64,000 nt of DNA, taken from the NCBI GenBank assembly GCA_965208125.1, contig OZ242320.1:4288001-4352000 (forward strand), in the 5' to 3' direction. A program made the translations under genes and the position numbers. Below are positions 1-64,000 of this stretch, in pieces. Source of the stretch: Candidatus Latescibacterota bacterium. GTDB taxonomy: Bacteria > Latescibacterota > UBA2968. The notes under the pieces are model-generated. The model saw only the letters and a program-made list of their open reading frames with translations. It ran no database searches and was not told the origin of the DNA. Position 1 is the first letter of the stretch. Each line of letters opens with the position of its first letter.

Positions 1-462
1 TGCGACATAAATATCATTTTTGTACCTGGTTCGCGCCCATAGTAAAGCCAGCAAAGTTCGCTCTGTTTCAGGCGTGAGTCGATTTGGCATCTGTGTACTT
101 TTAGACCCAAACCAATTGTAGAATGTAATCAGCCTTGGATTGCGCCACAGGCTGTAGAGACTCTGCCCGGGCTGTATGCCTTTCTCCTCACATTCTGCGA
201 GGTTTGCCAGTTCGATTTGAAAATCTATTGTCAATTCTTTGTTGACTTCGTTTAGATTTTGGTTGAGCCACATTTGATCAAACATCTGACGGTCTTTGCC
301 CGAAAAATCTGATTTTGCGCCTGCTTCAAAGGCTTGTTGAATGCGTTGGAGGCGCGTTTCCAATTCTTCTGCCATCAATTCGGTGATACGCTTGTCGATG
401 GGTGAATCACCAAATTCCAGAAGGGATCGAAACCAACTGTTTTTAGCATCTGCTTCGGGCAT
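1..462 (-). CDS. Hypothetical protein, 5' part (runs off window start)
   Basis: Manual translation is open from ATG at 462 (MPEADAKNSWFRSLLEFG...RLTPETERTLLALLWARTRYKND) to base 1; GGAGGTG RBS upstream. Absent from the ORF track because it has no stop in the window. Confidence 0.75.
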   Translation of the reverse strand, partial: MPEADAKNSWFRSLLEFGDSPIDKRITELMAEELETRLQRIQQAFEAGAKSDFSGKDRQMFDQMWLNQNLNEVNKELTIDFQIELANLAECEEKGIQPGQSLYSLWRNPRLITFYNWFGSKSTQMPNRLTPETERTLLALLWARTRYKNDIYVA

Positions 463-511
463 ATTATTGCTTCACCTCCAATGGAGCCACAAGAAGGTAT
501 CTCATTTGCGC

Positions 512-2746
512 TCACGCTGAGCAGTCCCCGGCGTCTGTTGTACCGGTATCAAATGCCCATCCGTCCCACATGTTGTCAGCGGTCGCTGGCACATCCTCTC
601 GAAAGTTTCGGGTATCGACCCACCACTGACGGTTTGGCGCTGGTCCATGCGACAGGTTAAAATATGGCGTCATACCATCTCGTTGATACTCACAAGGAAC
701 AACGAGACGCACGACAGGTCGATCGCGCTCAGCAGAGCGATTGACACCTCCTCCGTGAACAAGGCGAGGATGCCAGAAAACAACGTCCCCTGCTTTGCCG
801 GAAAACTCCACTGGCGCAATCTCTCTCAGCACATTGTCACGGGCTTTGCTATATGGCTCTGCGAGGTCGGGGTCAAGGGGACCGTAAACAGTAGTGTGAT
901 ACAGGTGACTCATGTAATGTGACCCCGGCCAGATTGTGAAGCCACCAGAGTGCGGAGGCACCGTATCTACAAAAACCATTGCAGATAATTGAGCCGCTGT
1001 ATGGTCTCCATGGGGGGCCAAACGACTTTCTGAATTTGGTGGTTTTGGAAATATACAATAGACCCCTCGCACCCGGTTTGAACGTTTAACCGGGTCGCCG
1101 ATAAACAATGAAACCAACTGCCGCATACGTGGGTGGTTGGCGATCTTATCGACAAAAAAAGGCTCTGTACCAATTTTACGCGAGCGCATTTTCCATGTGC
1201 CGCGCGTAAATTGCCCTGCCTTTTCGGCATCCACCTCTGTCCACTGCCCGTGTGGCGCATCAAACCACGTTTGCACATCGTCGCGTTTGACAATCTCACG
1301 CGGCACATTTTCCCACACATAATCCACGATCCGGTCAAACGTCTCCTTCTCTTTCAGAAACCCGCGTTTCACAAGAAAACCATTCTCTTTGAAAAACGCG
1401 ACTTCGGCTTCACTGAGGGTTGGGTCTCCATTCACAAATTCTGGATCGGGCAAGAGGGCGGGGTCTCCGTTCGCAAATTCTGGATTGACCAATACCTGGG
1501 GATCACGGATGACGACGTCTTCGGAAATTCTGAGCGCGTGTAAACCGCTTCCTTCAAATGGCGGCACCAAAAGATTGTAGATTTGTTGCGCTTTCTCTTT
1601 CTGATTCATGCAGGCCAATTCGGCTTTCACAGGCTCAAAATCCATATTTAAATAAAGGTAAGCAGCGAGCCTCAGACATCTAAATGCGGGCTCCCCAGAA
1701 AAGGGTTGAATCTGTGGAAGTGTCCACTCGCGATCGCCCATCCAGTAGGGATAAAGCCAATCAAAGGCGCGTCGCATGGATCGCCCATCGGTAGATTCAT
1801 AATTGGCGAGATCAATACCCCACTGTCGGCCAATCTCAGCGAGTTCTAAAAGAAGCTCCAAATTCATACTCGCGTATCCAAGTGCCTTTGTGCGTGCGAG
1901 TTCCAGAGGCTGTTGACCATCTGGCTCAATCTGATTGGCAATCCTTCTTTCTCCCACCCCTTTTAATATCATTTGCGCAAGATCTGATTGCCCTACAAAA
2001 AGCGCGAATGTCACAACCTGAACATCATAAGAACTCGAATGGTTATTGCCGTGACGCGCTTCGTCAACCCCATAAGGATGCTTCAACATCCATTCGAGAA
2101 ACGCGTGAAACCAGGCTTGCAAATCTTCCATATCTTTTTGGGACCAGTTCCTGGAGTCGCGCAAAAAACTGACCGCAGGGAGCATCTCGCGTGCAAATGC
2201 AGCCGTCTCAATCAGCCCGATACCTCGCCCTTCGCATATCCCGGGTATGGCCTGCCCAAACAAAAGGTTTGGGTTCATCCTGGTTTCGGGATTCATAAAC
2301 CATGTTCGCAACAACAATGCAGCATGCGCCGCGTAGTCTTCTCGCTGTGTAAAACCATACGCAAACCCCAGCGTTTTCACCGTTGAAATGAATTTTGCCA
2401 ACAAAGGGCGGTCCGTTTTCTCGACCTCGGGATTGACCTCGCCATCTCGTCGGATATAAGGCAAACCGTCAGGCTTATCGGGGTCTGGCCACCAGTAAGG
2501 CCCAACACTCATGTAATCGTGTTTGTCACTACTGGCAGGCAAGATCGGTTTGTTCACAATGGTCAGCGGTTCCTGCTTCAAAGCGGCATCCGCTTTCACA
2601 AGCAGGGCTTTAAGGGCTTGCCCACACGGGTTATCTTCCCGTTTGCTCAACGAGCGCGCCCGCTTGATGTAATCGGGATCTACTGTAAATATGGGTTCAG
2701 CAGGTGAAAACGCCTTGAGCAGATCAGCTTCTTTGTCCGGATACAT
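512..2746 (-). CDS. Fusion: alginate lyase (PL5/Alginate_lyase-like) + PhyH-type Fe(II)/2OG dioxygenase
   Basis: N-half has DKHDYMSVGPYWWPDP..GLPYIRRDGEVNPE, NNH, QIEPDGQQPLEL. C-half has LSEAEVAFFKENGFLV, PHGDH, GGFTIWPGSH, GDVVFWHPRLVH. RBS ACAGGAG. Confidence 0.85.
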   Translation of the reverse strand: MYPDKEADLLKAFSPAEPIFTVDPDYIKRARSLSKREDNPCGQALKALLVKADAALKQEPLTIVNKPILPASSDKHDYMSVGPYWWPDPDKPDGLPYIRRDGEVNPEVEKTDRPLLAKFISTVKTLGFAYGFTQREDYAAHAALLLRTWFMNPETRMNPNLLFGQAIPGICEGRGIGLIETAAFAREMLPAVSFLRDSRNWSQKDMEDLQAWFHAFLEWMLKHPYGVDEARHGNNHSSSYDVQVVTFALFVGQSDLAQMILKGVGERRIANQIEPDGQQPLELARTKALGYASMNLELLLELAEIGRQWGIDLANYESTDGRSMRRAFDWLYPYWMGDREWTLPQIQPFSGEPAFRCLRLAAYLYLNMDFEPVKAELACMNQKEKAQQIYNLLVPPFEGSGLHALRISEDVVIRDPQVLVNPEFANGDPALLPDPEFVNGDPTLSEAEVAFFKENGFLVKRGFLKEKETFDRIVDYVWENVPREIVKRDDVQTWFDAPHGQWTEVDAEKAGQFTRGTWKMRSRKIGTEPFFVDKIANHPRMRQLVSLFIGDPVKRSNRVRGVYCIFPKPPNSESRLAPHGDHTAAQLSAMVFVDTVPPHSGGFTIWPGSHYMSHLYHTTVYGPLDPDLAEPYSKARDNVLREIAPVEFSGKAGDVVFWHPRLVHGGGVNRSAERDRPVVRLVVPCEYQRDGMTPYFNLSHGPAPNRQWWVDTRNFREDVPATADNMWDGWAFDTGTTDAGDCSA
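1422..1499. repeat. 39-bp imperfect tandem repeat (2 copies) in the fusion linker
   Basis: gggtctccattcacaaattctggatc... at 1422 and gggtctccgttcgcaaattctggatt... at 1461; encodes NPEFANGDP / DPEFVNGDP. Confidence 0.85.
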
Positions 2747-2770
2747 GTGAATACTCCTGTTTTAAGTTGG

Positions 2771-4702: not shown

Positions 4703-4822
4703 TTTGTGTTTTGCTATGAGGCGTTGCACAATGAAATGTCTTGATTGAGGTCCATTTTTGTATGTACTATACGCAGTAGTTTCTACACTTACACTCAACT
4801 CGAAACAATGGGAAGAATACAT

Positions 4823-6232
4823 ATGACACAAGAACGACCACACATACTCATTCTCACGGCGGACCAGCTACGGGCGGATTCCATGGGCTGCGCCGGTCAT
4901 CCGCGGGTCAAAACGCCAGTCATCGACTCGCTTGCCAACGACGGCATGCGGTTCAGTAATTGCCACACTGTGTCGCCGGTTTGTCAGCCGTCGCGGGTGT
5001 CGTTCATCACTGGCACCTACCCTCACAACCACGGCATCTGGTACAACCGCGGCGAACTGCCTATCAATTACCCGACGCTGTTCTCCCAATTGCGAGATGC
5101 TGGCTACCACACGGCAACCGTCGGCAAGTCGCACCTCTGGAGCCACAAGAAGGTGTCTCATTTGCGCGAAGGCGAGCCGTATATGCAAGCGCTCGGTTTT
5201 GACGTCATCGACGAGCTCGGAGGACCGCGGGGGAGTCTCAATTCGGATTCGTACTTCACCGACTACCTGCGCGAGAAAGATCTGTTCGAGCTCTTCGTCA
5301 GCGACACGCGCGAACGGGTTCGCGATCCAAAGCTCGTCAAACCAGCGGCATTTGAGGAGGACGATCACATGGACGGATACGTGGGCAGACGCTCGGTCGA
5401 GTTCGTCGATTCTGCGCCCGGGGACCGTCCGACCTGTCTGTTCGTCAACTTCCCAGGACCACATGACCCGTGGGACGCGCCGGGGAAGTACGCCACTATG
5501 TATGATCCGTCCGATTCGCCGCCCGCCATCGGCGTGCCACCACGCCCCGCCACGCTCCCCGAAGAAGTCGCTCAGAAGGAGGACTTCAAGACGGAGCCGG
5601 GCTTGACCACCGAAATCGCCGCTGCGATCCGGGCAAACTACGATGGCAAGATCACATTCGTCGATCACTGGTGCGGTGAGATCCTTGCGGCGTATGAACG
5701 ACGCGGCTGGCTCGATGATCTCTGCGTCGTATTCTGGTCCGATCACGGCGAAATGTCCGGCGATCACGGCAGGGTGTTCAAACGCACCTTTCACGAATCT
5801 GCGTTGCGGGTCCCCCTGATCCTGCGCTGGCCCGGACGGATACCGTCCGGTACTGTCTGCGATGCGCTGGTGGAGACCATCGACGTCGGCCCTGCCTTGC
5901 TGGAAGCCCTGGGGCTCGACCAGTTGCAGATGTCCCTTGGGCAGTCGCTGGGGCATCTGTTCGCAGAGCCGACCGCGCACCATCGCACCGAGGTATTGTC
6001 AGAGATTTTCTACGGTGGTTCGCGCAATACGATGGTGAAAACCAACCGCTACAAGTACGTCATAGATCAGCACGGCATGGGGTACATGCTGTACGATATG
6101 CAGCAGGACCCGGATGAGCAGCAAAATCTGATCGGCGATCCCGAGCATCGGGATACGGAGAACGAATTGCGGGACACGCTGCTTCGCCGCCTCGCGGCCA
6201 GTGCATTTGTCATGGACAGCGTGAACCTGTGA
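4823..6232 (+). CDS. Sulfatase (formylglycine-dependent S1)
   Basis: RPHILILTADQLR, CQPSR (CxPxR), GKSH, PHDP, SDHG, K/H motif. Confidence 0.92.
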   Translation: MTQERPHILILTADQLRADSMGCAGHPRVKTPVIDSLANDGMRFSNCHTVSPVCQPSRVSFITGTYPHNHGIWYNRGELPINYPTLFSQLRDAGYHTATVGKSHLWSHKKVSHLREGEPYMQALGFDVIDELGGPRGSLNSDSYFTDYLREKDLFELFVSDTRERVRDPKLVKPAAFEEDDHMDGYVGRRSVEFVDSAPGDRPTCLFVNFPGPHDPWDAPGKYATMYDPSDSPPAIGVPPRPATLPEEVAQKEDFKTEPGLTTEIAAAIRANYDGKITFVDHWCGEILAAYERRGWLDDLCVVFWSDHGEMSGDHGRVFKRTFHESALRVPLILRWPGRIPSGTVCDALVETIDVGPALLEALGLDQLQMSLGQSLGHLFAEPTAHHRTEVLSEIFYGGSRNTMVKTNRYKYVIDQHGMGYMLYDMQQDPDEQQNLIGDPEHRDTENELRDTLLRRLAASAFVMDSVNL

Positions 6233-8044: not shown

Positions 8045-8118
8045 TCAGCCTTGCCTTTCGTCAAAACAGTGAATTTGGACCCTTTAGAATCAAAGAAGCT
8101 ATTTTCCGTTGTTGTCAT
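8045..8118 (-). pseudogene. 5' stub of an alpha/beta hydrolase-like gene
   Basis: ATG at 8118 reads MTTTENSFFDSKG then, after a 1-nt shift, VQIHCFDERQG*. Resembles the FFDSxGVxIHYxDxGxG start of alpha/beta hydrolases. Confidence 0.45.
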
Positions 8119-16243: not shown

Positions 16244-16255
16244 GGTATTCTCCTA

Positions 16256-16387
16256 GGTTCTGTCTGAAAAGTCACTTTTAAGCCTGAAATGACCTGTAAG
16301 CGATTTTATCAGACAGCTTATTTTATAGGGTTTGGTAAATAGCCCAAATCGGCATTTAGAGGAAATTCAGACTTTTCAGACACTACC
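16256..16387. mobile_element. 132-bp MITE, copy 1
   Basis: Terminal inverted repeats GGTTCTGTCTGAAAAGTC / GACTTTTCAGACACTACC (16/18 match), flanked by TA on both sides, no ORF; identical to 63544-63675. Confidence 0.92.
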
Positions 16388-16435
16388 TAATGTAATCTTT
16401 ACCCTGGTTGAGATTTTTGAAATCAAAAAAGGTCC

Positions 16436-25936: not shown

Positions 25937-26000
25937 TTATCTTCTTTTTTGGCTAATTTCAGCGATGGTATCGCCGGTTATTTTGATGATATGGATATCT
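25937..26000 (-). pseudogene. Diverged 3'-end copy of the M55 peptidase gene
   Basis: DIHIIKITGDTIAEISQKRR* versus DTHTVKITGDTIAEISAKRR* (23933-23996); 10 mismatches in 64 nt, no indels. Confidence 0.9.
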
Positions 26001-26100
26001 CCTTCCACGATGTATCACATTGTCAAAATACATGATTGTGGGGTGCTCCTGCAAGCAGAGATGTGTCCGCTCCTCTTAGAGATGCTCTGTCCAATTGCGT

Positions 26101-32193: not shown

Positions 32194-32280
32194 TCATCTA
32201 CGCTGACCTTCGAATGCTAAACCTGGCCCCAATAGTGCAGTGACAGCGAAAATTCCAGAGAAAAACACGCTCCTCTTCAT
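32194..32280 (-). pseudogene. 5' stub encoding only a signal peptide
   Basis: AAGGA RBS then MKRSVFFSGIFAVTALLGPGLAFEGQRR*. Confidence 0.5.
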
Positions 32281-32291
32281 ATAGATAGTCC

Positions 32292-33953: not shown

Positions 33954-34021
33954 AGGTGATGCTTCCTATTTACAAAAAAGAGCAGGTGGACCTGTTAGAA
34001 GCGGTGGCGGCTCGACGCCTT

Positions 34022-34202
34022 TTACATCCGTTTTGGAGCGTGCGATTCCAGCAAAAACGCAAAGGTCACAAAGAGTGCAAGGAATGCCGGAAGGACTGCC
34101 AGCAACAATGGATAGGCCATTTCGCCTGTCATCCCGAGTGCTGCGACTCCAAGCAGCCCCCATCAAGCCGATGGCATACATCCTGTGCAGGTCAGATATC
34201 AT
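34022..34202 (-). pseudogene. Frameshifted or partial small membrane protein
   Basis: MISDLHRMYAIGLM, then another frame gives hydrophobic GLLGVAALGMTGEMAYPLLLAVLPAFLALFVTFAFLLESHAPKRM*; frames switch at a G5 run. Confidence 0.45.
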
Positions 34203-34257
34203 TATCTATGCCTTGTCAGTTAGTTATAGAAGATATATTGAGCCGCCAATCCAAATC

Positions 34258-37366: not shown

Positions 37367-37378
37367 GGTGTGACCATT

Positions 37379-37975
37379 TTACCACTCATCCAGATTGCGA
37401 TCAAAAAAACTCATAATAGCCCTGGAATCCGGCCTATCCATATAAGCCATGTCTGAAAAATAACATCTACTATCGAGATCGCACATTATCGAATTTAGAG
37501 GCGCACCAGGAATAGTTTTTTGGCTCTGATTTGAAGTAAATAGCACTTCCATTTGCCAACTATGAAGAAGGGGTGCAGCCTCACTGTGAACCAGAGCAAT
37601 ACAATTGTTCCAGGTGCCAAAAGTTGAGTCACCAACAGAACGTATTTTTTTTACATAATGGTCAATAATCTGCTGATCTGTGACCGCTTGCTCATGGGAA
37701 AAAATTCGCCGAACAAAAACGTTAGGTTGCTCCTTATTTGACAATCCATTGATCTCCAGCCCAGAATCGATCGCAAAAGACGGGAGGCCCGATGCTTGAT
37801 AATAAGCTATTGCCTTTTTGATCGCATTCTTTTCAGGGGTATCACCGTCTTCAGTTACATCTAATTTTAGTCCCAATTGGATAGGGTCTATAATTTCCAT
37901 TGAAAACGGCGATAAAATATGTCTAACATGACGAATTTTTTCTTTATTGGTCGTTCCAAATAGAATCTTCTTCAT
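37379..37975 (-). CDS. HAM1/ITPase-like non-canonical purine NTP pyrophosphatase
   Basis: FGTTNKEK, EDGDTPEKNAIKKA, DSGLEI..L..EQP; AT-rich; lacks the canonical C-terminal SHR. Confidence 0.75.
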   Translation of the reverse strand: MKKILFGTTNKEKIRHVRHILSPFSMEIIDPIQLGLKLDVTEDGDTPEKNAIKKAIAYYQASGLPSFAIDSGLEINGLSNKEQPNVFVRRIFSHEQAVTDQQIIDHYVKKIRSVGDSTFGTWNNCIALVHSEAAPLLHSWQMEVLFTSNQSQKTIPGAPLNSIMCDLDSRCYFSDMAYMDRPDSRAIMSFFDRNLDEW

Positions 37976-43015: not shown

Positions 43016-43201
43016 TACAAGTCATTAGGGTGAGGAAGATAAGGGTCATGTGGTTTAGACAAATGAAATAGGGTTTAGGTTTTCCGACCGGGCTATTGAA
43101 GAAAAGTTAGCAATTGAGGATATTGCTTTTTGTACGCGATTTAGCGGGGTGGGAGTTGTTTTTGTCATCAGTGAAAAAATAGAGGGACAGCCATCACACC
43201 C

Positions 43202-43280
43202 TTCTATTTTTTGTCTTTCACTTCTGCTTGCTGGACAGTCGCTTATATTTAAGAAATTTCTCTTGAACCAACCCTTTTGC
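43202..43280 (-). pseudogene. trpD: Diverged 3'-end copy of trpD plus downstream spacer
   Basis: AKGLVQEKFLKYKRLSSKQK* versus AKGLVQEKFLEYKRLSKRQE* (about 32919-32999); 6 mismatches over about 70 nt, similarity continues about 17 nt past the stop. Confidence 0.92.
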
Positions 43281-43834: not shown

Positions 43835-43857
43835 GCCTAACTACGAGATTAACGAAC
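43835..43857 (-). other. attC-like right half-site
   Basis: Minus strand TTCGTTAATCTCGTA-GTTAGGC (exact GTTRRRY) upstream of the NUDIX RBS; no left arm. Confidence 0.5.
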
Positions 43858-43873
43858 AGTTTCAGCAAGTCGT

Positions 43874-45659: not shown

Positions 45660-45747
45660 ACTTAACGTTCTCGGCACCCACGAACCTGGCATAGCCAGGT
45701 TGAGCGAAAGCCCGAATGGTTTGAGGCTGTGGGTGCGAGTGTTAGCG
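45660..45747 (-). other. Complete attC-like recombination site
   Basis: Minus strand CGCTAAC-ACTCG-CACCCAC...GTGGGTG-CCGAGAAC-GTTAAGT; paired arms, internal hairpin AACCTGGC/GCCAGGTT; lies between the stop at 45794 and the start at 45629. Confidence 0.7.
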
Positions 45748-45793
45748 GAAATCGCCTTTGATCCACAGTCTGTTCAACACTTGGGACCTGCCC

Positions 45794-46684
45794 TCACCGC
45801 ACCTGCCCCATAGGCCATTCCGAGGTCGGCCTACCTTGCCACGTTGATCGCCTGAAGAATCGCCCGCCTGGGGGGCGGCTAAACCAGCTACTAATTGCGA
45901 TTCCCCAAAAGTGCTCAAAGGATCTGTCTTTTAGATTCGCGTCACAGTATGCGTAGTGCGACAGGACCTCGTCGAGGAATGGCTCTCCGTATATCCAGAA
46001 CCCATAGAAATCCTTAGCGGGATCTGTGATTTCGACGTCTCCCCAGTCTATGATCCCAGTAAGTCTTCCGGTCAAGGGGTCATGATAGATATGTTTGTAC
46101 CAGAGGTCGTTGTGAGCCAGCACAGACTCGTATGAATGATCGATGCTTTCACTTCTTTCGATCCATGCTTCGAAAACATTGCGGACCTCACATTGAAGCT
46201 CGTCAGCCCGTTCAACGAATAACGCCTTCCACATCCTGCGACGCCTAACCGATGTGTCGCCCTCTTCTACGCCGAGGCTCCGTGCCTTCGCGACCGGGTA
46301 GCTGTGGAGTTCGCTGATGAAAACACCCAGCCTCTGAGCGGCCTCACTGCGGTTCGCCTTGGAAAGTCTCCAAAACCGCCACGGCGAGAGTCGAGTCCCC
46401 GAAATTGTGTGGTATCCCGCAAAATCTGACGCCTTCGGCACGAATGCATAGTCGGGAATGGGTATTGCCTTCAGGTTGCTTCTAAGGGCATCCAGGACGA
46501 TCCGCTCCCTCGTCAGATTTGTATCCACATCGTTCTCGAACCGGAAAGCGATGCCATTGTCCAACAGAATCATTACATGATCGGGATCGGCAATGGTCTG
46601 AACTCTTCGGTAATTTGCCCACATGAGATCTGGAAAGGCGTTTCTGATTCTCTCCAGGTAGTAGCTGGAAGCCAATGGGGGCAT
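45794..46684 (-). CDS. Aminoglycoside phosphotransferase-like kinase
   Basis: IPIP, LAHNDLWYKHI, TGIIDWGDVEITDPAKDF. Confidence 0.82.
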   Translation of the reverse strand: MPPLASSYYLERIRNAFPDLMWANYRRVQTIADPDHVMILLDNGIAFRFENDVDTNLTRERIVLDALRSNLKAIPIPDYAFVPKASDFAGYHTISGTRLSPWRFWRLSKANRSEAAQRLGVFISELHSYPVAKARSLGVEEGDTSVRRRRMWKALFVERADELQCEVRNVFEAWIERSESIDHSYESVLAHNDLWYKHIYHDPLTGRLTGIIDWGDVEITDPAKDFYGFWIYGEPFLDEVLSHYAYCDANLKDRSFEHFWGIAISSWFSRPPGGRFFRRSTWQGRPTSEWPMGQVR

Positions 46685-46702
46685 AGGGACCTGCGAAAAA
46701 AT

Positions 46703-49850: not shown

Positions 49851-49852
49851 TC

Positions 49853-53164: not shown

Positions 53165-53180
53165 AGAAAACTCCTATTCT

Positions 53181-55059: not shown

Positions 55060-55082
55060 TACTGTAATTTTAAAGAGTTCCA

Positions 55083-56066: not shown

Positions 56067-56085
56067 CTTCGGTCTCGTGAGACCT

Positions 56086-56490
56086 TCACAAGCTCGTGGT
56101 TTTCAGTCGCTCAATTATCTTCCTATCCGCCTCGAATGCCATATCTGTTGGCGGCTCCTCAAGAGAGAATAGCTGGACTTCAGCGGCATCGTCCCCTGCG
56201 ACCAGATTACCGCCCTTTTCTTTAATGAGAAACCATACTCCTACCACACTCCGCTCAGGTGAGTGATGTGTTGAGAGCACATCTACAATATCACCGACTT
56301 CTACATCCAGACCAGTCTCTTCCTTAATCTCGCGCCTCACGGCAGTTCGGACATCCTCACCAACCTCAACATTCCCGCAAGGGATACACCACTTCCCTTT
56401 GTGTGTCCCGTATTTGCGGCGAACCATTACAATTTGGTTGCCTCTGAGAATCACCCCGGCAACGCCTGCTTTTACGTAATGTGATGGCAT
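56086..56490 (-). CDS. NUDIX hydrolase
   Basis: WCIPCGNVEVGEDVRTAVRREIKEETGL, AGDDA, MAF. Confidence 0.92.
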   Translation of the reverse strand: MPSHYVKAGVAGVILRGNQIVMVRRKYGTHKGKWCIPCGNVEVGEDVRTAVRREIKEETGLDVEVGDIVDVLSTHHSPERSVVGVWFLIKEKGGNLVAGDDAAEVQLFSLEEPPTDMAFEADRKIIERLKTTSL

Positions 56491-56602
56491 CGTTAAACGG
56501 TCCGTCGTATTGTGAAAACCTCAAGAGAAAGTCTAATGTCCATGTGGCCCACCATTTCAAGGAAGAGGGGGTCGGGTTGCTCAGAAAAATTTGAGGTGTG
56601 GC

Positions 56603-57010
56603 TCAGTCGCACGCTTGTTGCTCAAAGTTCCTCACGATCATTCCACGAGCTTTCTCGAATCCAAGTCTCTCGTAGAATCTCTGGACCTTCTGGTCACAGA
56701 TCAGGTCAATCATGTAGAGATCTTTGAGCTTTCGAACCATGCGTCTGACCAGTTCAGATCCGATGCCTTTCCCTTGCCATTCTGGCAGCACCTCAAGATG
56801 TGGGATATAGGCGCACGAAACACCGTCCGATATGGCGCTGATGAAGCCAATCACCTTCCCCTCAGAAGAGACTGCAAGAACCACGTAGTCGCTTCCCTTT
56901 AAGATTCTTAGATGCGCCTCGGGGGAGGGAGGGTTAGGCCATCCGACAAAGAACCCCTTTAGATTGTCTGATCCAATTCCGTCGGTAGTGTCCTGATATG
57001 TAATCTGCAT
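56603..57010 (-). CDS. GNAT N-acetyltransferase
   Basis: GFFVGWPNPPSP, ISDG, LEVLPEWQGKGIG, FYERLG. Confidence 0.9.
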   Translation of the reverse strand: MQITYQDTTDGIGSDNLKGFFVGWPNPPSPEAHLRILKGSDYVVLAVSSEGKVIGFISAISDGVSCAYIPHLEVLPEWQGKGIGSELVRRMVRKLKDLYMIDLICDQKVQRFYERLGFEKARGMIVRNFEQQACD

Positions 57011-57057
57011 TGTTAGCAGCACCTCGATGGGGCCAACTCGCCAACGCGATCGCACCA

Positions 57058-58185
57058 TCACACCATCGTCTCCAAATACACCTTCAACGCTGCAGCCAGA
57101 TCGCGTCCAAATACACGCGCCAGTTCTGGACTCGTATCCAGATCGCCCACATTGGCATAGGGAAACTCAATTGCCGTTGCCAATTGAACACCCGGCAATT
57201 CACCCGCCCATCGACCAAAGCTCTTGCCAGCTGCATAATTCTCTGCCGTATTCCACTCCACGCCAAAGGGCAAATTATCCGCTGCAAAAAAGGGCAAGCC
57301 TCCCGTTCGTTCCGCTTCCAAAATATGCGAAAACCGCATCTGTTCCTGCCAGGGGACTTCTGACTCTGACCCCACCAGATAAATCGTCTCATTGCGATTC
57401 ATACGAATCCACGGACAGTGCAGATCAATCGCTACCTTCAGTTTGCCAGCGCTCCAATCCGGCACCCTTTCTCGAATCACAGCCGTTTCAATATGCACAC
57501 TCTCCCCGACATAATCCCGGTTGTGATCCCTCGGCTTCCGATTCTTCCCCTGATCGCCATCCTCCACACCGTCTTTATCCACAAACGGAATCACCAGACA
57601 TTCAACTCGTCTCTGAAACCAACGCCCCAAATCACCCTTACCAAGTATCGCCGCCATCATGCCTTCCAGCACATACGATTGCATCATCTCACAGCAGTGG
57701 TGTCGCGCCGCAATCAACACGCGCAGATCCGCCCCACCGTCCAGTCGCCCCACATACAACATCTCAACATCACGTCCTTTGCGCGTCTCGCACAACGTCT
57801 CAGCCACCAGATAATCAGAATCCACATACGACGCCAAAAACCGGTCCAGATCGGCCTGCACATACGGCATCCCAAAACTGAACCGCACATCATCCGCGTC
57901 ATTCGCAAACGCATACACAAACGACTGTCCATCCACCGCATCATTACCCAACCAGCGCCACGTCACCCCACAGTCTTCACTCATCCCAGGACCACGCGTG
58001 CCAATCACATTGCTGCCGGTAAAGTGAAACCGCACGGTTCGGCCTGCTGCGCCACGCACCCGAAAATACCAGTAGAACCAGTCGCGATCCGTATCGCGCA
58101 GATCCTGCCGAACCAACACATCATCACCGTCAATTCGTTCAGCGATGATATTCCCACCCGGAAAATCACAATCTATCATAATCAT
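57058..58185 (-). CDS. M14 zinc carboxypeptidase family protein
   Basis: DFPGGN, WFYW.F, RHHCCE (HxxE), GKNR.PRDHNR, IDLH, IEFPYA. Confidence 0.85.
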   Translation of the reverse strand: MIMIDCDFPGGNIIAERIDGDDVLVRQDLRDTDRDWFYWYFRVRGAAGRTVRFHFTGSNVIGTRGPGMSEDCGVTWRWLGNDAVDGQSFVYAFANDADDVRFSFGMPYVQADLDRFLASYVDSDYLVAETLCETRKGRDVEMLYVGRLDGGADLRVLIAARHHCCEMMQSYVLEGMMAAILGKGDLGRWFQRRVECLVIPFVDKDGVEDGDQGKNRKPRDHNRDYVGESVHIETAVIRERVPDWSAGKLKVAIDLHCPWIRMNRNETIYLVGSESEVPWQEQMRFSHILEAERTGGLPFFAADNLPFGVEWNTAENYAAGKSFGRWAGELPGVQLATAIEFPYANVGDLDTSPELARVFGRDLAAALKVYLETMV

Positions 58186-58217
58186 TGAACACGCTTCTTT
58201 ATGATGTCGATTTGCAT
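58182..58217 (-). pseudogene. 5' stub / mini-ORF coupled to the M14 gene
   Basis: GGAGGA RBS then MQIDIIKKRVQ*, whose TGA overlaps the M14 ATG (ATGA). Confidence 0.4.
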
Positions 58218-58248
58218 TTACTCCTCCACTATCCATTGGAGCGGTAAT

Positions 58249-58764
58249 CTAGATAGACAATGGGCGACGGAGCCGGATTTGGCGTCCGTTGTCTCGAACA
58301 CCGCCATCACGTTTCCACCCCATCGCCTCGTAGAAAGCGATCCCGCGTTCATAACCCTTAACAGTCCAAACTATCGCTTCATTATAACCGTCGGCAACGA
58401 GATGACGAAACGCGAGCGAGGCCAACGCCTTGCCGATGCCGATGCGCCAATACGAGGGGTCAATGGCGATGGTATCGAGTTCCCCTAATGTGGCGTCAAC
58501 GGGATCGCGGCTGGGACCGATGCCGACAAAACCGACAACCTTACCCGTATGCTCTGCGACCCACCACCGGTGCGGGGCAGACTTGGCAAGATCGCCGCGC
58601 CAACGCTCAACGAGTTCTGATGTGACGATGCGATTGGACTGCTCGATGAGTTCGCCGAATCCTGCATTCCACGAATCGATATATATGCGTGTGACGACTT
58701 CGGCGTCCACCGCAGCGGCCGATCGGATCGTTGGCCAAGGTTTTTGTGGATGTGCGTATTCCAA
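58249..58764 (-). CDS. GNAT N-acetyltransferase
   Basis: IRSA...D, VVGFVGIGPSRD, ELDTIAIDPSYWRIGIG, AFYEAMGW. Confidence 0.9.
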   Translation of the reverse strand: MEYAHPQKPWPTIRSAAAVDAEVVTRIYIDSWNAGFGELIEQSNRIVTSELVERWRGDLAKSAPHRWWVAEHTGKVVGFVGIGPSRDPVDATLGELDTIAIDPSYWRIGIGKALASLAFRHLVADGYNEAIVWTVKGYERGIAFYEAMGWKRDGGVRDNGRQIRLRRPLSI

Positions 58765-58782
58765 CTCGCCTATTCCTATGTC

Positions 58783-58844
58783 ACATAACGTTTCAGTACT
58801 CCCGAACCACGAAGCGGTTGGGGGACGGCGAGCATCGGGTTGGC
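58783..58844 (-). other. Complete attC-like recombination site
   Basis: Minus strand AGCCAAC-CCG-ATGCTCGCCG...CGGGAGTAC-TGAAAC-GTTATGT; 13 nt after the stop at 58858 and just before the GNAT RBS. Confidence 0.65.
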
Positions 58845-58857
58845 TGATTCTCGCCTT

Positions 58858-59835
58858 TCAATCTATGCCTTCGATTGCAGCCTCGCCCATACGAATCGCC
58901 GCATCCGGGAGAGCGAGTATTCGGTCTTCCAATCCCCAGGTTCTCCGATTAGGCGACTTCGGCCCCCATTTCCGGTGGAGCTGGCAGAGGCGCTTGGCAT
59001 AGTAGGCCGCGAAGATGAAGGGGAGTGCGGTACGTTCATCATCTGAGGGAGGCCGGACTGAAAAGTACCCCTCCACGAACCGCTGCATTTCCTCATCTGT
59101 AAGCTGTCGCCCCACGGTCCCCATCAGCCATTGCATCCGGACCATCACTACATCCTCAAGCGCCGGAGCGAAGTGAGCCGAATTGAAGTCGGTGAATCGG
59201 ACCTCACCTGACGGGGAAGCAATCGTGTTCCAACTTCGCACATCTCTACGACAGAAGAGCCAACGAACGTCCATCTTGTTCGGCGTGTTATTCAACTGTG
59301 CTCGAAGCCGAGTGACCGCATCTGCCGCGGCCGACGAGAATGTCGTCCTCTCGCAATACTCGAGAGCATCAGAGATGTACCCTTGTGCATCTTTGACTTC
59401 TGAAAGGTAGGCTGGAAAGTCTTCGCTCGCATCGTGAACCCGTGCGAGAGCCTCCCCCACGTTGCGGAGAGTATCGACGCGGTCTACGACCTCTCCTTCC
59501 AAGAAGCTCTCCACCGAAATCACCAGGTCTCGAACGGACTTGTAGAGGCTACCATCCGTGGTTGGACGGATGTCAGGACACGGCGCGCCGCGATCGGCAA
59601 GGTGTCGCACAAACTCCACAATGGTTTTGGGATGGGTCGAGCCGTCCCATCCCGGATTCACGCGGAACACAACGCGTCCGTCCCGCAGACTATCACAAAA
59701 GAAGACGCACCGCGAATTCGCCCTGCGGACGCTGGTTACTTCCAGATCCCAGAATCGCTTGCAGAGATCCATAATTTCTGGCTGATCAGGCAGCGGGCCC
59801 GTTTCGTCTCTATATCTGGGATAGCGTGGTTCCAT
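58858..59835 (-). CDS. APH/choline kinase-like phosphotransferase with atypical catalytic loop
   Basis: VFRV, GAPCP, GEALARVH, CRRDVRSWN where HxDxxxxN is expected, FTDF; start uncertain (59835 or 59925). Confidence 0.7.
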   Translation of the reverse strand: MEPRYPRYRDETGPLPDQPEIMDLCKRFWDLEVTSVRRANSRCVFFCDSLRDGRVVFRVNPGWDGSTHPKTIVEFVRHLADRGAPCPDIRPTTDGSLYKSVRDLVISVESFLEGEVVDRVDTLRNVGEALARVHDASEDFPAYLSEVKDAQGYISDALEYCERTTFSSAAADAVTRLRAQLNNTPNKMDVRWLFCRRDVRSWNTIASPSGEVRFTDFNSAHFAPALEDVVMVRMQWLMGTVGRQLTDEEMQRFVEGYFSVRPPSDDERTALPFIFAAYYAKRLCQLHRKWGPKSPNRRTWGLEDRILALPDAAIRMGEAAIEGID

Positions 59836-59875
59836 TGGTTTTCTCGGCCCAGGACTGGCCGTAGCGGCGCGAGGA

Positions 59876-60472
59876 TTATAGGTGGTGCATAGCCCCAACA
59901 GCATCGAGTCGATATTGGTTGCCATCGTATGCAATCGTCGTAACGGAGCATTCACGCATTACTTCACCACTGTATGGGTCATTGCAGAATTCCGGACTGA
60001 TGCGACTCAGTTCTTCAGACGAAAAAACATTGAGAAGGAAGTCTGCTAAGACACCACCATGGGTCACCCCAATCACAGTATCTTTGGATGACTGAAGATA
60101 GCAATCAGAAACAAATGCCTCAATACGTCTGCCAGCCTCAATGCTTGAATCGCCGACACTGGATTGGTAATCTCGTTCTGTGTTACAACGCTCCCACTGA
60201 GTTATGAATTCATCGAAAGATTGGCCTTCGATGTCCCCCCAATTCATTCGTTCACGTAGCCGTGAATCTTCAGTAACTTCAAGATTCAAAATGGTGGCGA
60301 TGATCTCTGCTGTCTCTCTTGTTCGTGCCAGGGGACTGCTGAAGATTCGCGCGATGCCATTTGATGCTAACTTCCGGGCGAGTAGTCCTACCTCTTCTCG
60401 TCCCTTTGATGTCAATGAAGGATCGCCGATCTTGCGGTCTCTCTTACCATGGCGAATAAAGTGAAAACGCAT
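59876..60472 (-). CDS. Histidine phosphatase (phosphoglycerate mutase family)
   Basis: FIRHG, LTSKG, SSPLARTRETA, LRE, VTHGG. Confidence 0.92.
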   Translation of the reverse strand: MRFHFIRHGKRDRKIGDPSLTSKGREEVGLLARKLASNGIARIFSSPLARTRETAEIIATILNLEVTEDSRLRERMNWGDIEGQSFDEFITQWERCNTERDYQSSVGDSSIEAGRRIEAFVSDCYLQSSKDTVIGVTHGGVLADFLLNVFSSEELSRISPEFCNDPYSGEVMRECSVTTIAYDGNQYRLDAVGAMHHL

Positions 60473-60576
60473 TAAATCTACCTGTCTTCCGACCTGTTTT
60501 TTAGGGCGGTTTGGGTGGCACCTACATCAAATTACAATCGGGGCGGGAATAGAGCAGGCGACATCAGCATATTTTT

Positions 60577-63062
60577 TTATTCATTCCGCAAGGCATCTAC
60601 AGGATTTGATCGAGCTGCCTTCATTGTCTGGAAACTCACTGTGATCATGGCAATAAGGAAAGCCAAGATACCACTTAACATAAAAAACTCAAATCCAAGA
60701 TCTACCCGATACGCATAATTCTGAAGCCACTGCCACAGGGCATAGTAGCCAATCGGCCAGGCCAAGAGATTTGCAAGTGCGACCAACTTTGCAAAATCAC
60801 TGGATAGCAACATAACAATATTGGATACAGACGCTCCCAATACCTTGCGAATGCCGATTTCTTTTGTACGGTATTGCGCACTCAATGTGGCCAACCCAAG
60901 TAACCCCAAGCAGGCAATCAAAATACCAAGGGTTGAAAAGAAACCAAAAATATAGCTCAGTTTTCTTTCATTTTTATAGATTCGATCCAAATTCTCATCA
61001 AGAAAAGAAAATGTGAATGGACGATTGGGTATATACCTTTCCCAGACTTTTTGTACAAATGCCAGTGTTTGAGATAAATCTTCAGATTTGACCTCTAGGT
61101 ATAGTAGCCTTGCCTCATGAAATTCTGCAACCAATACGAGTCGTCCGATTTTTTCGTCAAGAGGTTTGTAATGAAAATCTTTGACAACACCGACGACTGT
61201 GCCGGAGCGTAGTCCATCTGGGTAGAACGTGCCTCCAACCTTCCAAGCAAATCGTTTCCCTATTGGATTTGTCCAACCCAATTGCTCGACCGCTGTTTCA
61301 TTCAAGATAAACCGCTCGTCTAATTTTTCCCTCAGTCTTTGCGGGTTTGTTGTTTCGGCATATGATCGCGTGAAATTCCGGCCTGATACGCATTTAATGC
61401 CATAGAAATCTAGAAAATCCTCATCCACGATTATCACATCCATACTGTACGTGGATTTTCCTTCGGGATGGAATGTCTCTACTGTTGCTCCTTCTCCAAC
61501 AGGGCCACGGGTGGTTGTTGCTCTGAGAATATTGGGATGCGTCGTGAATGCCTGCTTGATGGCGTTGTATTGGCTCTTGAAAAGCGTGGGATTGATCATC
61601 TGGTTGCTATTCGCTGCCTCAAAAATTGGAACTTCAATAATCTGCTCGCGGTCGAATCCCAGATTCTTATTTCGAAGAAATTTCTGTTGACTGTAAACAC
61701 CCCAAGTGACAACCATCAATAAAATGGCAAGAGCAAATTGTCCTACAACCAAACTCTTGCGAAGCCGAGTAGAGACGTTTGTAGCGGATTTACCTCTCAA
61801 CATTGAAACAGGGCGAAATGTCGATAAGACAAATGCCGGATAACTCCCTGCCAGAATACCGACGATGAATATAAGACCGAAAAGGCTGAGCAATAACTGG
61901 GTTGTGTTGACATTGAGTGTAATAGCGCGATCAAAAAACGAATTGAAAGTTGGCAATGCCAATTCTACCAACACCAAAGCCAAGATAAGCGCCATACAAG
62001 CAAAAAATATAGATTCGCCCAAAAATTGTGTGATGAGCTGCAATCGGTTTGCACCGACAACCTTACGAAGCCCGACCTCTCGCCTCCGCCCAATTGCACG
62101 AGCAGTTGTTAGGTTTATAAAATTCACACAGGCAATTACTAAAATAAAAATAGCAAGCAAAGAAAACAAATACACATTTTGAATGTCACCATGAGGTTTA
62201 CTGGTCTCTGGAGTACCACGATTCTCAATTTTGATGCCATAATCATGATTGGAGTATAGATGGATGCGGTTTAGGGGCTGCAAATGATATTGAATGTTAT
62301 TTGCAGCTGCTTCGCCCAGGTATTTCGGAATCAGATCTGAAAGTTTGCCTTCAAGTTGATTCGCATCATAACCTTCTTTAAGCAAAATATAGCTTTCTAC
62401 AGGACGCACCCCTCTCGGTTTCCAAGCCATCCATTTTTCTTGCCATCGCCCATTTTTAGTCGCCGATAAAATATCGAACCGAATGGCCGTCTGCTCAGGC
62501 ATATTTTTTAAGACGCCTGTAACGTGATGCGCATAATCTTTGTCGTCTTCCTCGATCAGAATGGTTTTGCCAATCGGATTTTCAGTGCCAAACAGTTTGT
62601 GTGCAAGTCTTTGAGTGATTAAAACGGAACCTGGTTCTGAGAGAACCGTTTCGGGATCGCCTTGAATCAGTGGAAAGTCAAAAACCTGTAGAACATTCTC
62701 GTCTGTAAGGCAAAAGGCTTGTTTGTATATTCTCTTATTGTCAGCAATTATTGTTCTTTGCCAGCGATGGATACGCAAAGCCTCAGAAATTTCAGGATAT
62801 ACATCCTGATTCAAGACTTCTACGAGACCTCCTAATGTGCGCTCACTAAAAGCTGCTTGGTCAACTGTTTTAGTCTCTCGAATCACCCTGTAAATTTGAT
62901 CTCGATTCCTTTGGTTCTGATCAAAACCTAATTCATAGTCGATATAGAGGCCTATCAGGATACAACAAGCCAAACCAATGGCTAACCGATAATGTTTAGA
63001 GCTGAGTAGAAACGATGGTTTATCAGGTTTCTCAGCATTATTTTGAGATAATTTTTCAGCAT
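60577..63062 (-). pseudogene. MacB/FtsX-type duplicated ABC permease with a frameshift near codon 27
   Basis: ATG 63062 gives MLKNYLKIMLRNL..HRFYSALNIIG then TAG; one added base at ~62985 restores LAIGLACCILI. Motifs IACVNFINL, REVGLRKVVGA, RTKEIGIRKVLGAS, NPVDALRNE. Confidence 0.85.
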
Positions 63063-63496: not shown

Positions 63497-63543
63497 AGTT
63501 AGGTTCAAATTTGTTACTGCCGAAGATGTGAGCCCATTCACTA

Positions 63544-63675
63544 GGTTCTGTCTGAAAAGTCACTTTTAAGCCTGAAATGACCTGTAAGCGATTTTATCAG
63601 ACAGCTTATTTTATAGGGTTTGGTAAATAGCCCAAATCGGCATTTAGAGGAAATTCAGACTTTTCAGACACTACC
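63544..63675. mobile_element. 132-bp MITE, copy 2
   Basis: Base-for-base identical to 16256-16387, same orientation, same cTA...TAa context. Confidence 0.92.
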
Positions 63676-63688
63676 TAAGAAGCATAAG

Positions 63689-63716
63689 CGACGCCGCGTG
63701 AATCGCTGTGTTAAAT
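63689..63716 (-). other. attC-like left half-site next to the MITE
   Basis: Minus strand ATTTAAC-ACAGC-GATTCACGCGG about 30 nt after the GNAT stop. Confidence 0.45.
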
Positions 63717-63746
63717 GTAGTGATCTCTCGGCTTGTTTCAGGCACT

Positions 63747-64000
63747 CTATTTAAGTGCAAATTCTAATAAGGGAATAGGGCGCCCCGGAATGGCCCCGGA
63801 AGGTGCTTCTCCAATTCGAACGGAACCTCTTGATAAATAAAATGATTCTGCATATGGGTCTGAGGGGATAGACAATTTGTGAAAACCTAACTGTCTCGCT
63901 TGATCAATCGCATGATCCCAAAGTCTCTTTCCATATCCTTGGCCTATTTTGCTTGGCTCAATAAATAAATCAGACAGTTCGAGTTCATTCTCTCTGATTT
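63747..64000 (-). CDS. GNAT N-acetyltransferase, 3' part (starts beyond window)
   Basis: Manual translation: LSDLFIEPSKIGQGYGKRLW...SDPYAESFY..RG..RIGE.PSG.IPGR.IP.L...*. Confidence 0.88.
   Translation of the reverse strand, partial: IRENELELSDLFIEPSKIGQGYGKRLWDHAIDQARQLGFHKLSIPSDPYAESFYLSRGSVRIGEAPSGAIPGRPIPLLEFALK

Follow-up and report, generated by a model that had tools for sequence, protein, structure and literature searches.

The window analysed here (the whole stretch of 64,000 nt) is a segment of a co-oriented mosaic gene array, which extends over at least 141 kb (genome positions 4228001 to 4369095, or -60000 to 81095 relative to the window). Of the 56 ORFs obtained in the window by greedy calling, 50 are on the minus strand, as are 103 of the 115 in the array as a whole. 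When plus-strand genes were required to have Pfam support, only four remained in the window, and the bias of about 52 in 56 described in the initial annotation was reproduced. The bias ranked 96 among 4602 sliding 56-gene windows genome-wide, and is therefore strong but not unique. Pfam annotation agreed with the earlier statement that neighbouring genes are functionally unrelated, and the reported absence of regulators and complete transporters was nearly right, with one HTH_3 gene, one FtsX/MacB permease and one MFS remnant present (Table 1). The tight packing is real but not special (median co-directional gap of 53.5 nt in the array versus 22 nt in the rest of the genome), and the change of composition from gene to gene is modest (standard deviation of gene GC 0.052 versus 0.042 genome-wide; rank 274 of 4603). 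The array is rich in GNAT, NUDIX and phosphotransferase genes, and it also contains many large CAZymes and sulfatases.

Table 1. Features located in the window. G000 is the present genome; positions in brackets are those of the initial annotation.
Feature	Position	Strand	Basis and remarks
Segment of co-oriented mosaic gene array	1..64000	-	ORF strands and homologous modules in relatives
Sulfatase	4745-6232	+	Pfam
2-Hacid_dh	8320-9366	+	Pfam
138-nt MITE-like insertion	16253..16390	.	Identical copy at 63541-63678; absent from G008 at this joint
3' stub of M55 D-aminopeptidase gene	25938..26003 (25937-26000)	-	85% identical to 23934-23999
BNR_2	25965-27449	+	Pfam
APH	31360-32148		attC in relatives, none in G000
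5' stub	32209..32281 (32194-32280)	-	95.6% identity with G008, start region of a 263-aa frame (stop to stop)
MFS transporter remnant, about 1 kb internal deletion	33987..34203 (34022-34159)	-	5' piece 34160-34203, 3' piece 33987-34157
Module starting at 36677	36677		attC in relatives, none in G000
Ham1 3' end carrying first codons of NUDIX gene (38560-39006)	37374..37396	-	23-nt repeat, 96% identical to 38991-39013
APH	39849-40871	+	Pfam
CBM9 gene	40928-43015		attC in relatives, none in G000
3' stub of TrpD-like gene	43199..43280 (43202-43280)	-	89% identical to 32916-32999
Partial copy of attI-like element	43838..43863	-	One of three genome copies; full copy outside the window
Full-length attC-like site, 88 nt	45660..45747	-	nhmmer E 4e-9; CM R1 E 1.8e-10
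Module starting at 45668	45668		attC in relatives, none in G000
APH gene module	45779..46698	-	Second copy 98.8% identical at L007 1121-2040
HTH_3 gene	46801-47100		Pfam; attC in relatives, none in G000
attC-like 3' half site (remnant)	58783..58831	-	nhmmer E 3.7e-6, profile positions 34-83 only
His_Phos	59876-60472		attC in relatives, none in G000
His_Phos module	59889..60492	-	Last 131 nt repeated at L007 8693-8823, 100% identity
FtsX/MacB permease	60577-62973		Pfam
Second copy of 138-nt MITE-like element	63541..63678	.	Identity to 16253..16390

For a close comparison we used five genomes of the same genus (G002, G004, G006, G008 and G009). The array locus itself is present in all five, and 91% of the window is covered by modules homologous to at least one of them. 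The gene-sized modules are shuffled between these genomes without any inversion (0 of 744 HSPs between arrays), and the repeats within the array were all direct (35 direct, 0 inverted). As a control, two random 20-kb loci and the flank were collinear in the same five relatives. Synteny in the array is thus not conserved: order and content vary while orientation is kept, which is the behaviour that characterizes cassette arrays, and the proposal of an orientation-preserving collection of gene-sized units was borne out. The array also provides a natural case of bacterial gene-order change without inversion.

Some of the joints between modules retain pieces of former neighbours. Of 11 spacers that had been interpreted as such stubs, four are pieces of genes which are intact elsewhere, one (53102-53164) is partly supported and six are unsupported. 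Four relatives have frames of 271-274 aa whose 3' end matches the M55 stub, and an intact M55 gene is present in the window (23933-24739). The TrpD-like gene is also intact in the window (32937-33953), and G008 has an intact copy at the position of the stub. Both pieces of the MFS remnant match one 412-aa stop-to-stop frame in G008 (MFS_1, E 2e-53), and the transporter is intact (412-422 aa) in G008, G002 and G004. The 263-aa frame of G008 that matches the remaining stub (32209..32281) has no Pfam family; the translation of this stub resembles a signal peptide, as judged by eye only. Two of the unsupported spacers, 8045-8118 and 8250-8327, consist of conserved intergenic DNA between divergent genes. 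The only match to 49853-49921 comes from the same context in G009, an intact ORF of 392 aa encompasses 58182-58217, 30019-30123 extends into the 5' end of an intact gene (28953-30059), and 32292-32441 has neither a homologue nor a Pfam match. The density of stubs did not stand out by local repeat density, the one genome-wide proxy computed. Taken as a whole, the initial observation was partly confirmed and is largely real, and the proposal that deletions trimmed the locus and left stubs of former neighbours was supported.

Direct duplications, the only kind observed, accompany these stubs. An intact copy and a stub were found together for the TrpD-like, M55 and His_Phos genes, the last at 100% identity. 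The 131-nt repeat of His_Phos lies 12.8 kb away on the upstream side (in gene sense), in front of a methyltransferase gene, and the His_Phos and methyltransferase genes are adjacent in G008 and G006. Likewise, a Ham1 3' stub precedes NUDIX in G008 and G006, and the 23-nt repeat in the window marks a former Ham1-NUDIX adjacency. One duplication of about 13 kb and two deletions suffice to derive the order in G000 from that in G008. At 89 distinct indel joints the overlap ranged from -12 to +24 nt, with no common motif.

We searched for attC-like sites using a custom profile (16 sites) and a custom CM, not the covariance model of IntegronFinder. The 16 aligned sites (56-108 nt) have invariant TAACA and CGTT, and 82% of the cells in the alignment were paired, versus 26-40% when the partners were slid. 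In the inner (L) helix all six pairs have changes on both sides, with a covariation score reached by none of 500 shuffles, and the constrained folds had energies of -0.33 to -0.48 kcal/mol per nt. The family thus has the features by which attC sites are recognized, namely R'' (RYYYAAC) and R' (GTTRRRY) ends in imperfect palindromes of 55-140 nt that lie downstream of ORFs, all on one strand. An nhmmer search of the 5.75 Mb genome (E<1e-5) gave six matches, all within the array and all on the minus strand, which is the gene strand, and the profile matches in six arrays were also on the gene strand (27 of 27). When 150 of about 1500 first-look candidates were scored per genome, the CM detected 1-9 sites in 13 of the 21 genus genomes, with more than nine in none of the 21; in genomes with a mapped array, these sites were in or near the array locus.

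The window contains one full and one half attC-like site among about 55 joints. These two sites are real, although the bare motif GTTRRRY was not enriched (95 seen, 105.3 +/- 11.4 expected); the profile search also bore out the claim that most joints have no att site. The full site lies between an APH gene (45794-46684) and the three-gene module starting at 45668, with a constrained fold of -36 kcal/mol in which TAAC and GTTA are paired. The half site, between a GNAT gene (58249-58764) and an APH gene (58858-59955), was also found in G008 and G009. The 45668 module has its start at the R' box (..ACGTTAAGT), with two unlike attC sequences and three different genes found upstream of it; in G008 and G004 it starts at the R' box behind an attC different from that of the window. 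The boundary at this joint, the one in the window where the position could be tested, is thus at G/TT of the R' box, as in cassettes. Loss of attC relative to the relatives was observed directly, as they keep an attC beside six window modules that have none in G000. In positions 1-30 kb of the window no attC-like site was found by the profile, and none beside its modules in the five relatives; the genes of this part (1-2.2 kb) are large for cassettes. Over the array of G000, attC sites or remnants spread across at least 34 kb, and weaker relics occur on the same strand 148 and 201 kb before the window begins, that is, about 230 and 280 kb from the array head.

The initial annotation had held that the mechanism was invisible and that no named system applied. 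However, an integron-type head comprising a recombinase, attC-bearing cassettes and an attI-like site is located about 16 kb past the end of the window. The gene for an IntI-like tyrosine recombinase (genome 4368012-4368842, gene strand) lies beside the conserved flank 16 kb beyond the window end; it is the best TIGR02249 match of the genome and the only candidate in G000. IntegronFinder recognizes integron integrases by PF00589 and intI_Cterm, and NCBIfam sets a cut-off of 265 bits for TIGR02249. The product matches PF00589 (E 4e-43), and its TIGR02249 scores (196.9 bits in G000 and 214.2 bits in the full-length L042 homologue) are below the cut-off. The IntI-specific insertion near patch III is absent, with IntI residues 173-239 (67 residues) of 2a3v having 25 counterparts in the recombinase. 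The closest solved relative is this Vibrio integron integrase, 2a3v (E 1e-41, using the full-length 95%-identical homologue). The copy in G000 has an in-frame internal deletion of about 127 residues. Among 41 genomes searched (40 relatives and G000), one from another genus (G031) passed the cut-off. In other phyla, homologues of the recombinase stand at the head of attC-like arrays whose strand they share. Note that the recombinase may be a later arrival, because it was found in only two of the 21 genus genomes.

A candidate attI-like element of 90 nt lies directly 3' of the recombinase gene in G000, and its 26-nt core is about 106 nt 3' of the gene in L042. The core has three genome copies at no more than three mismatches, all in the array on the gene strand; a fourth match, on the plus strand with seven mismatches, is far from the array. 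For the partial copy in the window, a breakpoint at 43861/43862 was seen in G002, G006, G009 and an RNA-library contig. In G002 a cassette directly follows the GTTAG with which the element ends; in L042 the same cassette follows a GTTAG-ending sequence resembling an attC 3' end, and in G000 it follows a 15-nt attC remnant. The element does not fold stably, which agrees with a double-stranded site.

These results make it probable that the window represents the distal section, eroded of its attC sites, of a very large integron-type array on the chromosome, which now changes mainly by duplication and microhomology deletion. The organism itself probably belongs to Latescibacterota. The genes would have arrived singly or few at a time as promoterless cassettes, inserted by a tyrosine recombinase at an attI site beside the conserved flank, and all would point in one direction because of this mode of insertion. 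The recombinase would later have been lost or crippled in most lineages, leaving the attC hairpins of 60-110 nt unmaintained, and short deletions may have removed most of them. Present change would then proceed mainly by segmental (tandem) duplication with loss of one copy, by microhomology-mediated deletions and by exchange with related genomes. None of these processes inverts genes, and together they would account for an order that is shuffled and never inverted, for joints trimmed as far as the ribosome-binding site and for the stubs. The head recombinase may have made the array, and the genes without attC, above all those in 1-30 kb of the window, were presumably cassettes once. Since no genus genome has more than nine sites, either the loss of attC is old and general or the genes never were cassettes. 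In its present form the array is an unusual integron variant, with a recombinase that lacks the IntI-specific insertion and with most joints without attC, and the most suitable class for the locus is that of decayed chromosomal integrons or CALIN-like arrays, not that of an undescribed system.

Alternatively, the array would be a flexible genomic island without an integron origin, in which selection keeps the genes co-oriented because promoterless genes depend on read-through from upstream promoters, and a small integron or CALIN at the flank-proximal end seeded a few cassettes at secondary sites. Tandem duplication and random loss, together with homology-facilitated illegitimate recombination with DNA of related genomes, would have changed the order. 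We consider such an origin unlikely, as it does not explain how more than 100 unrelated genes came to be 90% co-oriented in the first place and does not sit well with attC sites or remnants over at least 34 kb, with the distant relics, or with the attC kept beside six window modules in relatives. It is nevertheless consistent with the lack of an attC trace at most joints (all of those in 1-30 kb), with the 0-24 nt microhomology or short filler without a shared motif at the joints, with the exclusively direct repeats, and with the small number of attC-like sites among the candidates scored per genus genome. The array modules, moreover, are slightly more alike between species than the flank is (94.2-96.0% versus 92.3-94.0% identity).

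The initial annotation itself favoured an undescribed, attC-independent collector inserting units of a ribosome-binding site and an ORF in one orientation. The 5' edges of the modules do lie 3-40 nt upstream of start codons, and for some genes agree within a few nt across 3-6 contexts (33-39 nt for the gene starting at 2746, in six contexts). However, 31 module edges share no sequence or structure beyond a purine-rich ribosome-binding site, and the 3' edges differ by as much as about 70 nt. Nor is any candidate enzyme conserved at the locus, given that the recombinase occurs sporadically and the genes of the flank are of ordinary kinds. The integron, a known system, is itself found at the array head; a collector of this kind is very improbable. 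That the mosaic is a chimera of assembly can practically be discounted. Although the metagenome-assembled genome is one contig with an estimated contamination of 5%, the five other genomes have the same flank and long stretches collinear with the array (in G008, of 8.4 kb and 6.8 kb), and several joints, such as those in 47626-51433, 53166-56006 and 57263-58779, are bridged by contigs from public runs that are independent of this assembly.

If the decayed-integron reading is true, about 2.5-5% of the chromosome is former integron cargo, and integrons contribute to genome content far beyond what attC counts suggest; standard tools would report the array as a small CALIN at most, because they seek attC sites and a canonical integrase. 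Deletion of attC would also be a concrete route from cassette to permanent gene, with sulfatases and polysaccharide lyases among the genes concerned in this array. The insertion presumed necessary for the binding of folded attC is missing from the recombinase family, which nevertheless heads attC arrays in several phyla and makes it testable which part of IntI is truly needed for single-strand attC recombination. A bolder proposal, which we find possible though doubtful, is that the array is a gene bank, with a length of at least 141 kb and perhaps about 280 kb, which was founded and run by a second kind of integron integrase; this IntI-like enzyme, without the I2/IntI-specific insertion and co-oriented with its cassettes, would head attC arrays in three or more phyla. 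The removal of attC would be a one-way ratchet from mobile cassettes toward fixed co-transcribed chromosomal genes, whose order would then change by duplication and loss, and integrons could have built large parts of a chromosome that are invisible to integron-finding software.

Among known systems, the array resembles sedentary chromosomal integrons such as the Vibrio superintegron in being a long, co-oriented, mostly promoterless accessory array with a tyrosine recombinase and an attI-like site at its head, in the similarity of attC sites within one array, in order and content that differ between relatives, and in the abundance of GNAT, NUDIX and phosphotransferase genes. Unlike them, it has six attC-like matches for more than 100 genes, versus about one site per cassette in classical arrays, a recombinase without the IntI-specific insertion on the same strand as the cassettes, many large CAZymes and sulfatases, and gene stubs at the joints. 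An integron counts as sedentary in Cury et al. (2016, PMC4889954) if it has over 19 attC sites or occurs in every genome of its species; here we found six profile matches in G000 and 0-9 CM sites per genus genome. The same source defines a CALIN by at least two attC sites within 4 kb without intI nearby, and gives loss of intI as one proposed origin (PMC4889954). The array is CALIN-like in having attC-like sites without a canonical intI nearby, three of them within 3 kb of each other at L007 12220-15206, where they adjoin the IntI-like gene, while the two sites in the window are 13 kb apart; unlike a CALIN, it has a non-canonical IntI-like recombinase gene, and its bulk is without any attC. 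Decaying integrons with an inactivated integrase were reportedly described in Xanthomonas by Gillings et al. in 2005. The present array shares with them an inactivated integrase and a fixed, lineage-specific array, and differs in its size (at least 141 kb), phylum, near-complete loss of attC and still shuffling order. The available part of a 2025 preprint mentions inactivation of the integron platform and not loss of attC. As in tandem duplication and random loss in animal mitochondrial genomes, gene order changes while orientation is preserved and remnants of lost copies remain as spacers; unlike there, the setting is a bacterial chromosome, the scale is far larger and genes are also gained. 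A limited literature search found no paper applying this model to bacterial arrays. Flexible (additive) genomic islands are hypervariable accessory regions in which closely related genomes differ by gene-sized indels and whose boundary is a conserved core gene. The array is likewise hypervariable beside a conserved flank, and unlike such islands it combines 90% co-orientation and the absence of inversions with attC- and attI-type sites.

Most of the window (91%) was found in genomes of the same genus as gene-sized modules of 0.1-8 kb, with length-weighted mean identities of 94.2-96.0% (85-99% for single modules). The order of the modules differs between genomes, and their relative orientation is always kept: none of the 744 HSPs of at least 150 nt from all ordered pairs of six arrays was inverted, and the repeats within arrays comprised 35 direct and no inverted pairs. 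At two control loci picked at random and in the far flank, by contrast, the relatives keep a collinear order (87-96% identity). The mosaic begins sharply at the conserved flank, which carries a UVR-domain gene and Ldh_2 (window coordinate 81095), and reaches at least to window coordinate -60000, so that it covers 141 kb or more. Independent contigs from public sequencing runs contained the same modules with the same edges in other orders. These comparisons thus bear out neither of two grounds for refutation named in the initial annotation, conserved synteny in relatives and a chimeric assembly. Numerous runs bearing a sponge, coral or marine metagenome label contained 12-39% of the sampled window words, a figure in which the uncovered parts of the window carry no meaning. 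Two contigs of 4.9 and 8.8 kb from RNA libraries (runs X15 and X16; window 40001-60000) covered several modules, all on one strand and arranged unlike those of G000, the genome containing the window; they are compatible with long transcripts, without being proof of transcription or of single transcripts.

The window spans positions 4288001-4352000 of one 5,747,750-bp contig with a G+C content of 51.2%. A greedy ORF call assigned 50 of its 56 genes to the minus strand, which bears out the initial annotation (about 52 of about 56 genes on one strand), as Pfam supports just four plus-strand genes (see the table) and the remaining two calls on that strand overlap either an M55 gene of the minus strand or a gene remnant. 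According to Pfam, the first 30 kb encode polysaccharide lyases, four sulfatases, DUF3604 proteins, esterases and oxidoreductases, and the region of 30-60 kb encodes five APH, five GNAT and three NUDIX proteins together with other small enzymes. The tight packing seen in the initial annotation is not unusual, since the intergenic gaps are no shorter than in the rest of the genome, and the reported change of composition from gene to gene is present as a modest GC heterogeneity. Scans for promoters (20 versus 21.3 in shuffled sequences) and terminators (21 versus 19.2) gave no excess. An ORF of 392 amino acids (57058-58236) has no Pfam family, and the GC skew around it is very strongly negative (-0.256 over 56001-58000).

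A strict scan of the window for attC sites, using both consensus boxes and the fold, returned 10 candidates per strand, mostly intragenic. In the attC-like sites of the array, the bases before TAAC are non-consensus. These sites were indicated by k-mers enriched in the array spacers, which pointed to hairpins with TAAC and GTTA ends, and 16 of them form one aligned family. RNAalifold predicted no pairs on their MAFFT alignment. A structure written by hand from single folds and then tested was 82% paired over the 16 sites, with compensatory changes in six of six inner pairs; slid controls flatter this structure, because it was drawn from the same sequences. A sequence profile gave six significant matches in the whole G000 genome, none of them outside the array or off the gene strand, and all 27 profile matches in the six arrays were on that strand. 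With a covariance model, one to nine sites were detected in 13 of 21 genomes of the genus. Two degenerate full-length matches farther upstream also sit between co-oriented genes, a hint that the cassette-derived region may reach approximately 280 kb.

The top integron-integrase match (TIGR02249) of the G000 genome lies on the gene strand 16 kb past the window and borders the conserved flank. The solved structure nearest to this recombinase is that of a Vibrio integron integrase; the protein has no IntI-specific insertion, scores under the curated cut-off and, in G000, has lost about 127 internal residues, in frame, between two YVY repeats. Its distribution is sporadic: copies occur in G005 (93% identical) and G013 (83%), and the other arrays have no intact copy, with a short fragment retained in G006. 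Just 3' of the recombinase gene lies an attI-like element of 90 nt, present in three copies in the genome, every one in the array; as a folded site it showed no stable fold (z -0.3 to +1.4). On the flank side of the G006 and G008 arrays (loci L028 and L020), the place of the recombinase gene of G000 is taken by one or two small ORFs, with the attI-like element after them. At 4611-4720 of L007, the locus of G000 on the array head side, a 3' stub of one of these small ORFs is joined directly to a 30-nt remnant of the recombinase gene. In a search of 41 genomes (40 relatives and G000), only G031, from another genus of the same family, had a canonical integron-integrase match over the cut-off (G031:C423:2584-3518; 274 bits, in two overlapping frames). 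Homologues of the recombinase (45-92% identical) were found at five loci (L042, L044, L048, L053 and L070), each followed by attC-like hairpins on the same strand; these homologues likewise have no IntI-specific insertion, as their tblastn alignments are collinear. At least nine attC-like sites of about 113 nt follow the homologue in L044, a Gemmatimonadales record, and one to four follow it in each of the Bacteroidota records.

Several modules connect these sites with the genes of the array. The module from 45668 starts at the R' box in contexts that differ in the attC before it (two unlike sequences) and in the upstream gene (three different ones). Six window modules that are attC-less in G000 have an adjoining attC in the relatives, and beyond the window an attC that G004 has in full is reduced in G000 to its first 15 nt. 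A cassette that comes after the attI-like element in G002 is preceded in G000 by an attC remnant and in L042 by a GTTAG-ending sequence resembling the 3' end of an attC. No attC traces were found in the first 30 kb of the window or beside the modules of that region in the five relatives with mapped arrays.

The 5' edges of the modules lie 3-40 nt before the start codons, at the ribosome-binding site, and for some genes this edge is constant within a few bases across several contexts. The 3' edges lie at, or even within, the last codons, so that the same gene has different short tails in different contexts. No motif other than the ribosome-binding site was shared by 31 module edges. The 89 distinct indel joints had overlaps of -12 to +24 nt, and a few were insertion sequences with 9-nt duplications. 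A perfect MITE-like repeat of 138 nt with terminal inverted repeats occurs at 16253-16390 and 63541-63678, and also in G008, elsewhere in that genome; its end sequence matches that of a DDE_Tnp_1 insertion sequence (L007, about 13186-14220), which abuts the R' end of an attC.

Eleven gene remnants had been listed at the joints in the initial annotation; four match genes that are intact elsewhere, one is partly supported and six found no support. Further stubs exist beyond that list, for example at 34160-34203 and 37374-37396. A VOC-like identity of the peptide from 32298-32444 was rejected, the peptide having neither a Pfam match at E<=0.1 nor a paralogue. With local repeats as a proxy for stub density, the region is not exceptional (7 per 50 kb here versus up to 361 in other bins), although this proxy mainly reflects repeated genes and tests stub density poorly. 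Two unrelated genes, encoding DUF5069 and GNAT proteins, are 84% identical over their ribosome-binding sites and first codons (MQI..N; 38499-38535 and 39735-39771), a resemblance that suggests the in-frame fusion of a 5' stub to another gene. Upstream ORFs of 23 and 20 codons with their own ribosome-binding sites (49853-49921 and 53105-53164) directly precede the genes for PhyH and BNR; they gave no sign of being stubs and may encode leader peptides or be frames open by chance.

Coordinates of stubs, plus-strand genes and attC-like sites in and around the window
Feature	Position	Strand	Remark
Listed stub, confirmed	25937-26000		matches gene intact elsewhere
Listed stub, confirmed	32194-32280		matches gene intact elsewhere
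Listed stub, confirmed	34022-34159		matches gene intact elsewhere
Listed stub, confirmed	43202-43280		matches gene intact elsewhere
Listed stub, partial support	53102-53164
Sulfatase gene	4745-6232	+	Pfam-supported
2-Hacid_dh gene	8320-9366	+	Pfam-supported
BNR_2 gene	25965-27449	+	Pfam-supported
APH gene	39849-40871	+	Pfam-supported
attC-like, three full sites	within 4 kb downstream of recombinase	gene strand	sequence profile
attC-like, full site	window 45660-45747	gene strand	sequence profile
attC-like, half site	window 58783-58831	gene strand	sequence profile
attC-like, half site	just beyond window end	gene strand	sequence profile
Degenerate attC, full-length match	genome 4139650-4139724	minus	E 0.004; 148 kb upstream of window start
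Degenerate attC, full-length match	genome 4086963-4087039	minus	E 0.011; 201 kb upstream of window start

A leading-strand gene bias was rejected as the cause of the co-orientation, because a genome-wide strand bias is absent and the array opposes the GC skew of its local replichore; the strand bias of the window ranks 96 among 4602 windows genome-wide. Cumulative GC skew places the origin of the G000 genome near 1.95 Mb and the terminus near 4.95 Mb, and between 4.07 and 4.40 Mb (window -220000 to 110000) the skew is flat or negative and 70-95% of the genes are on the minus strand, except at 4.175-4.225 Mb, so that the array genes would meet replication head-on. The window contains no tRNA or tmRNA genes and no Rfam families at the gathering score, and is therefore not a tRNA-linked island. 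Tandem insertion of whole mobile elements at the attI-like site was also rejected, as the blocks between the copies of this element are not common to the relatives as units.

The simplest account is an integron that subsequently decayed. Insertion by the integron would have fixed the common orientation of the genes; the integrase would then have been lost or have decayed, leaving the attC sites no longer needed; and deletions would have taken these sites, trimmed the joints to the ribosome-binding site and left the stubs. The present-day shuffling would be mostly duplication followed by loss. For example, the His_Phos gene and the 100% identical 131-nt stub before the methyltransferase gene fit a derivation from the G008 order by a single duplication of about 13 kb plus two deletions, and the TrpD-like stubs of G000 and G008 mark one former site. 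The origin of the first 30 kb of the window as cassettes and the role of the recombinase as the builder of the array are putative. The initial annotation was partly confirmed as an observation, in its strand bias and some of its stubs but not in six other stubs, and its interpretation as an integron-like collection grown by oriented insertion and trimmed by deletion was supported in part.

No literature on such a locus, including integrons in Latescibacterota, was found, and in the accessible part of a 2021 review (PMC8618304), which names 14 phyla with integrons, Latescibacterota is not among them. By the definitions in the accessible part of PMC4889954, the array would be scored as CALIN at most; the tree of non-IntI recombinases beside attC in the supplement to that paper may bear on an earlier sighting of the present recombinase family. 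The group of recombinase homologues may represent an integrase type that standard integron finders would miss. The array works like a sedentary chromosomal integron, but differs from one in being nearly attC-free, in its size, in carrying stubs, and in the type and orientation of its integrase, same-strand integrases being found in an 'inverted' group of integrons.
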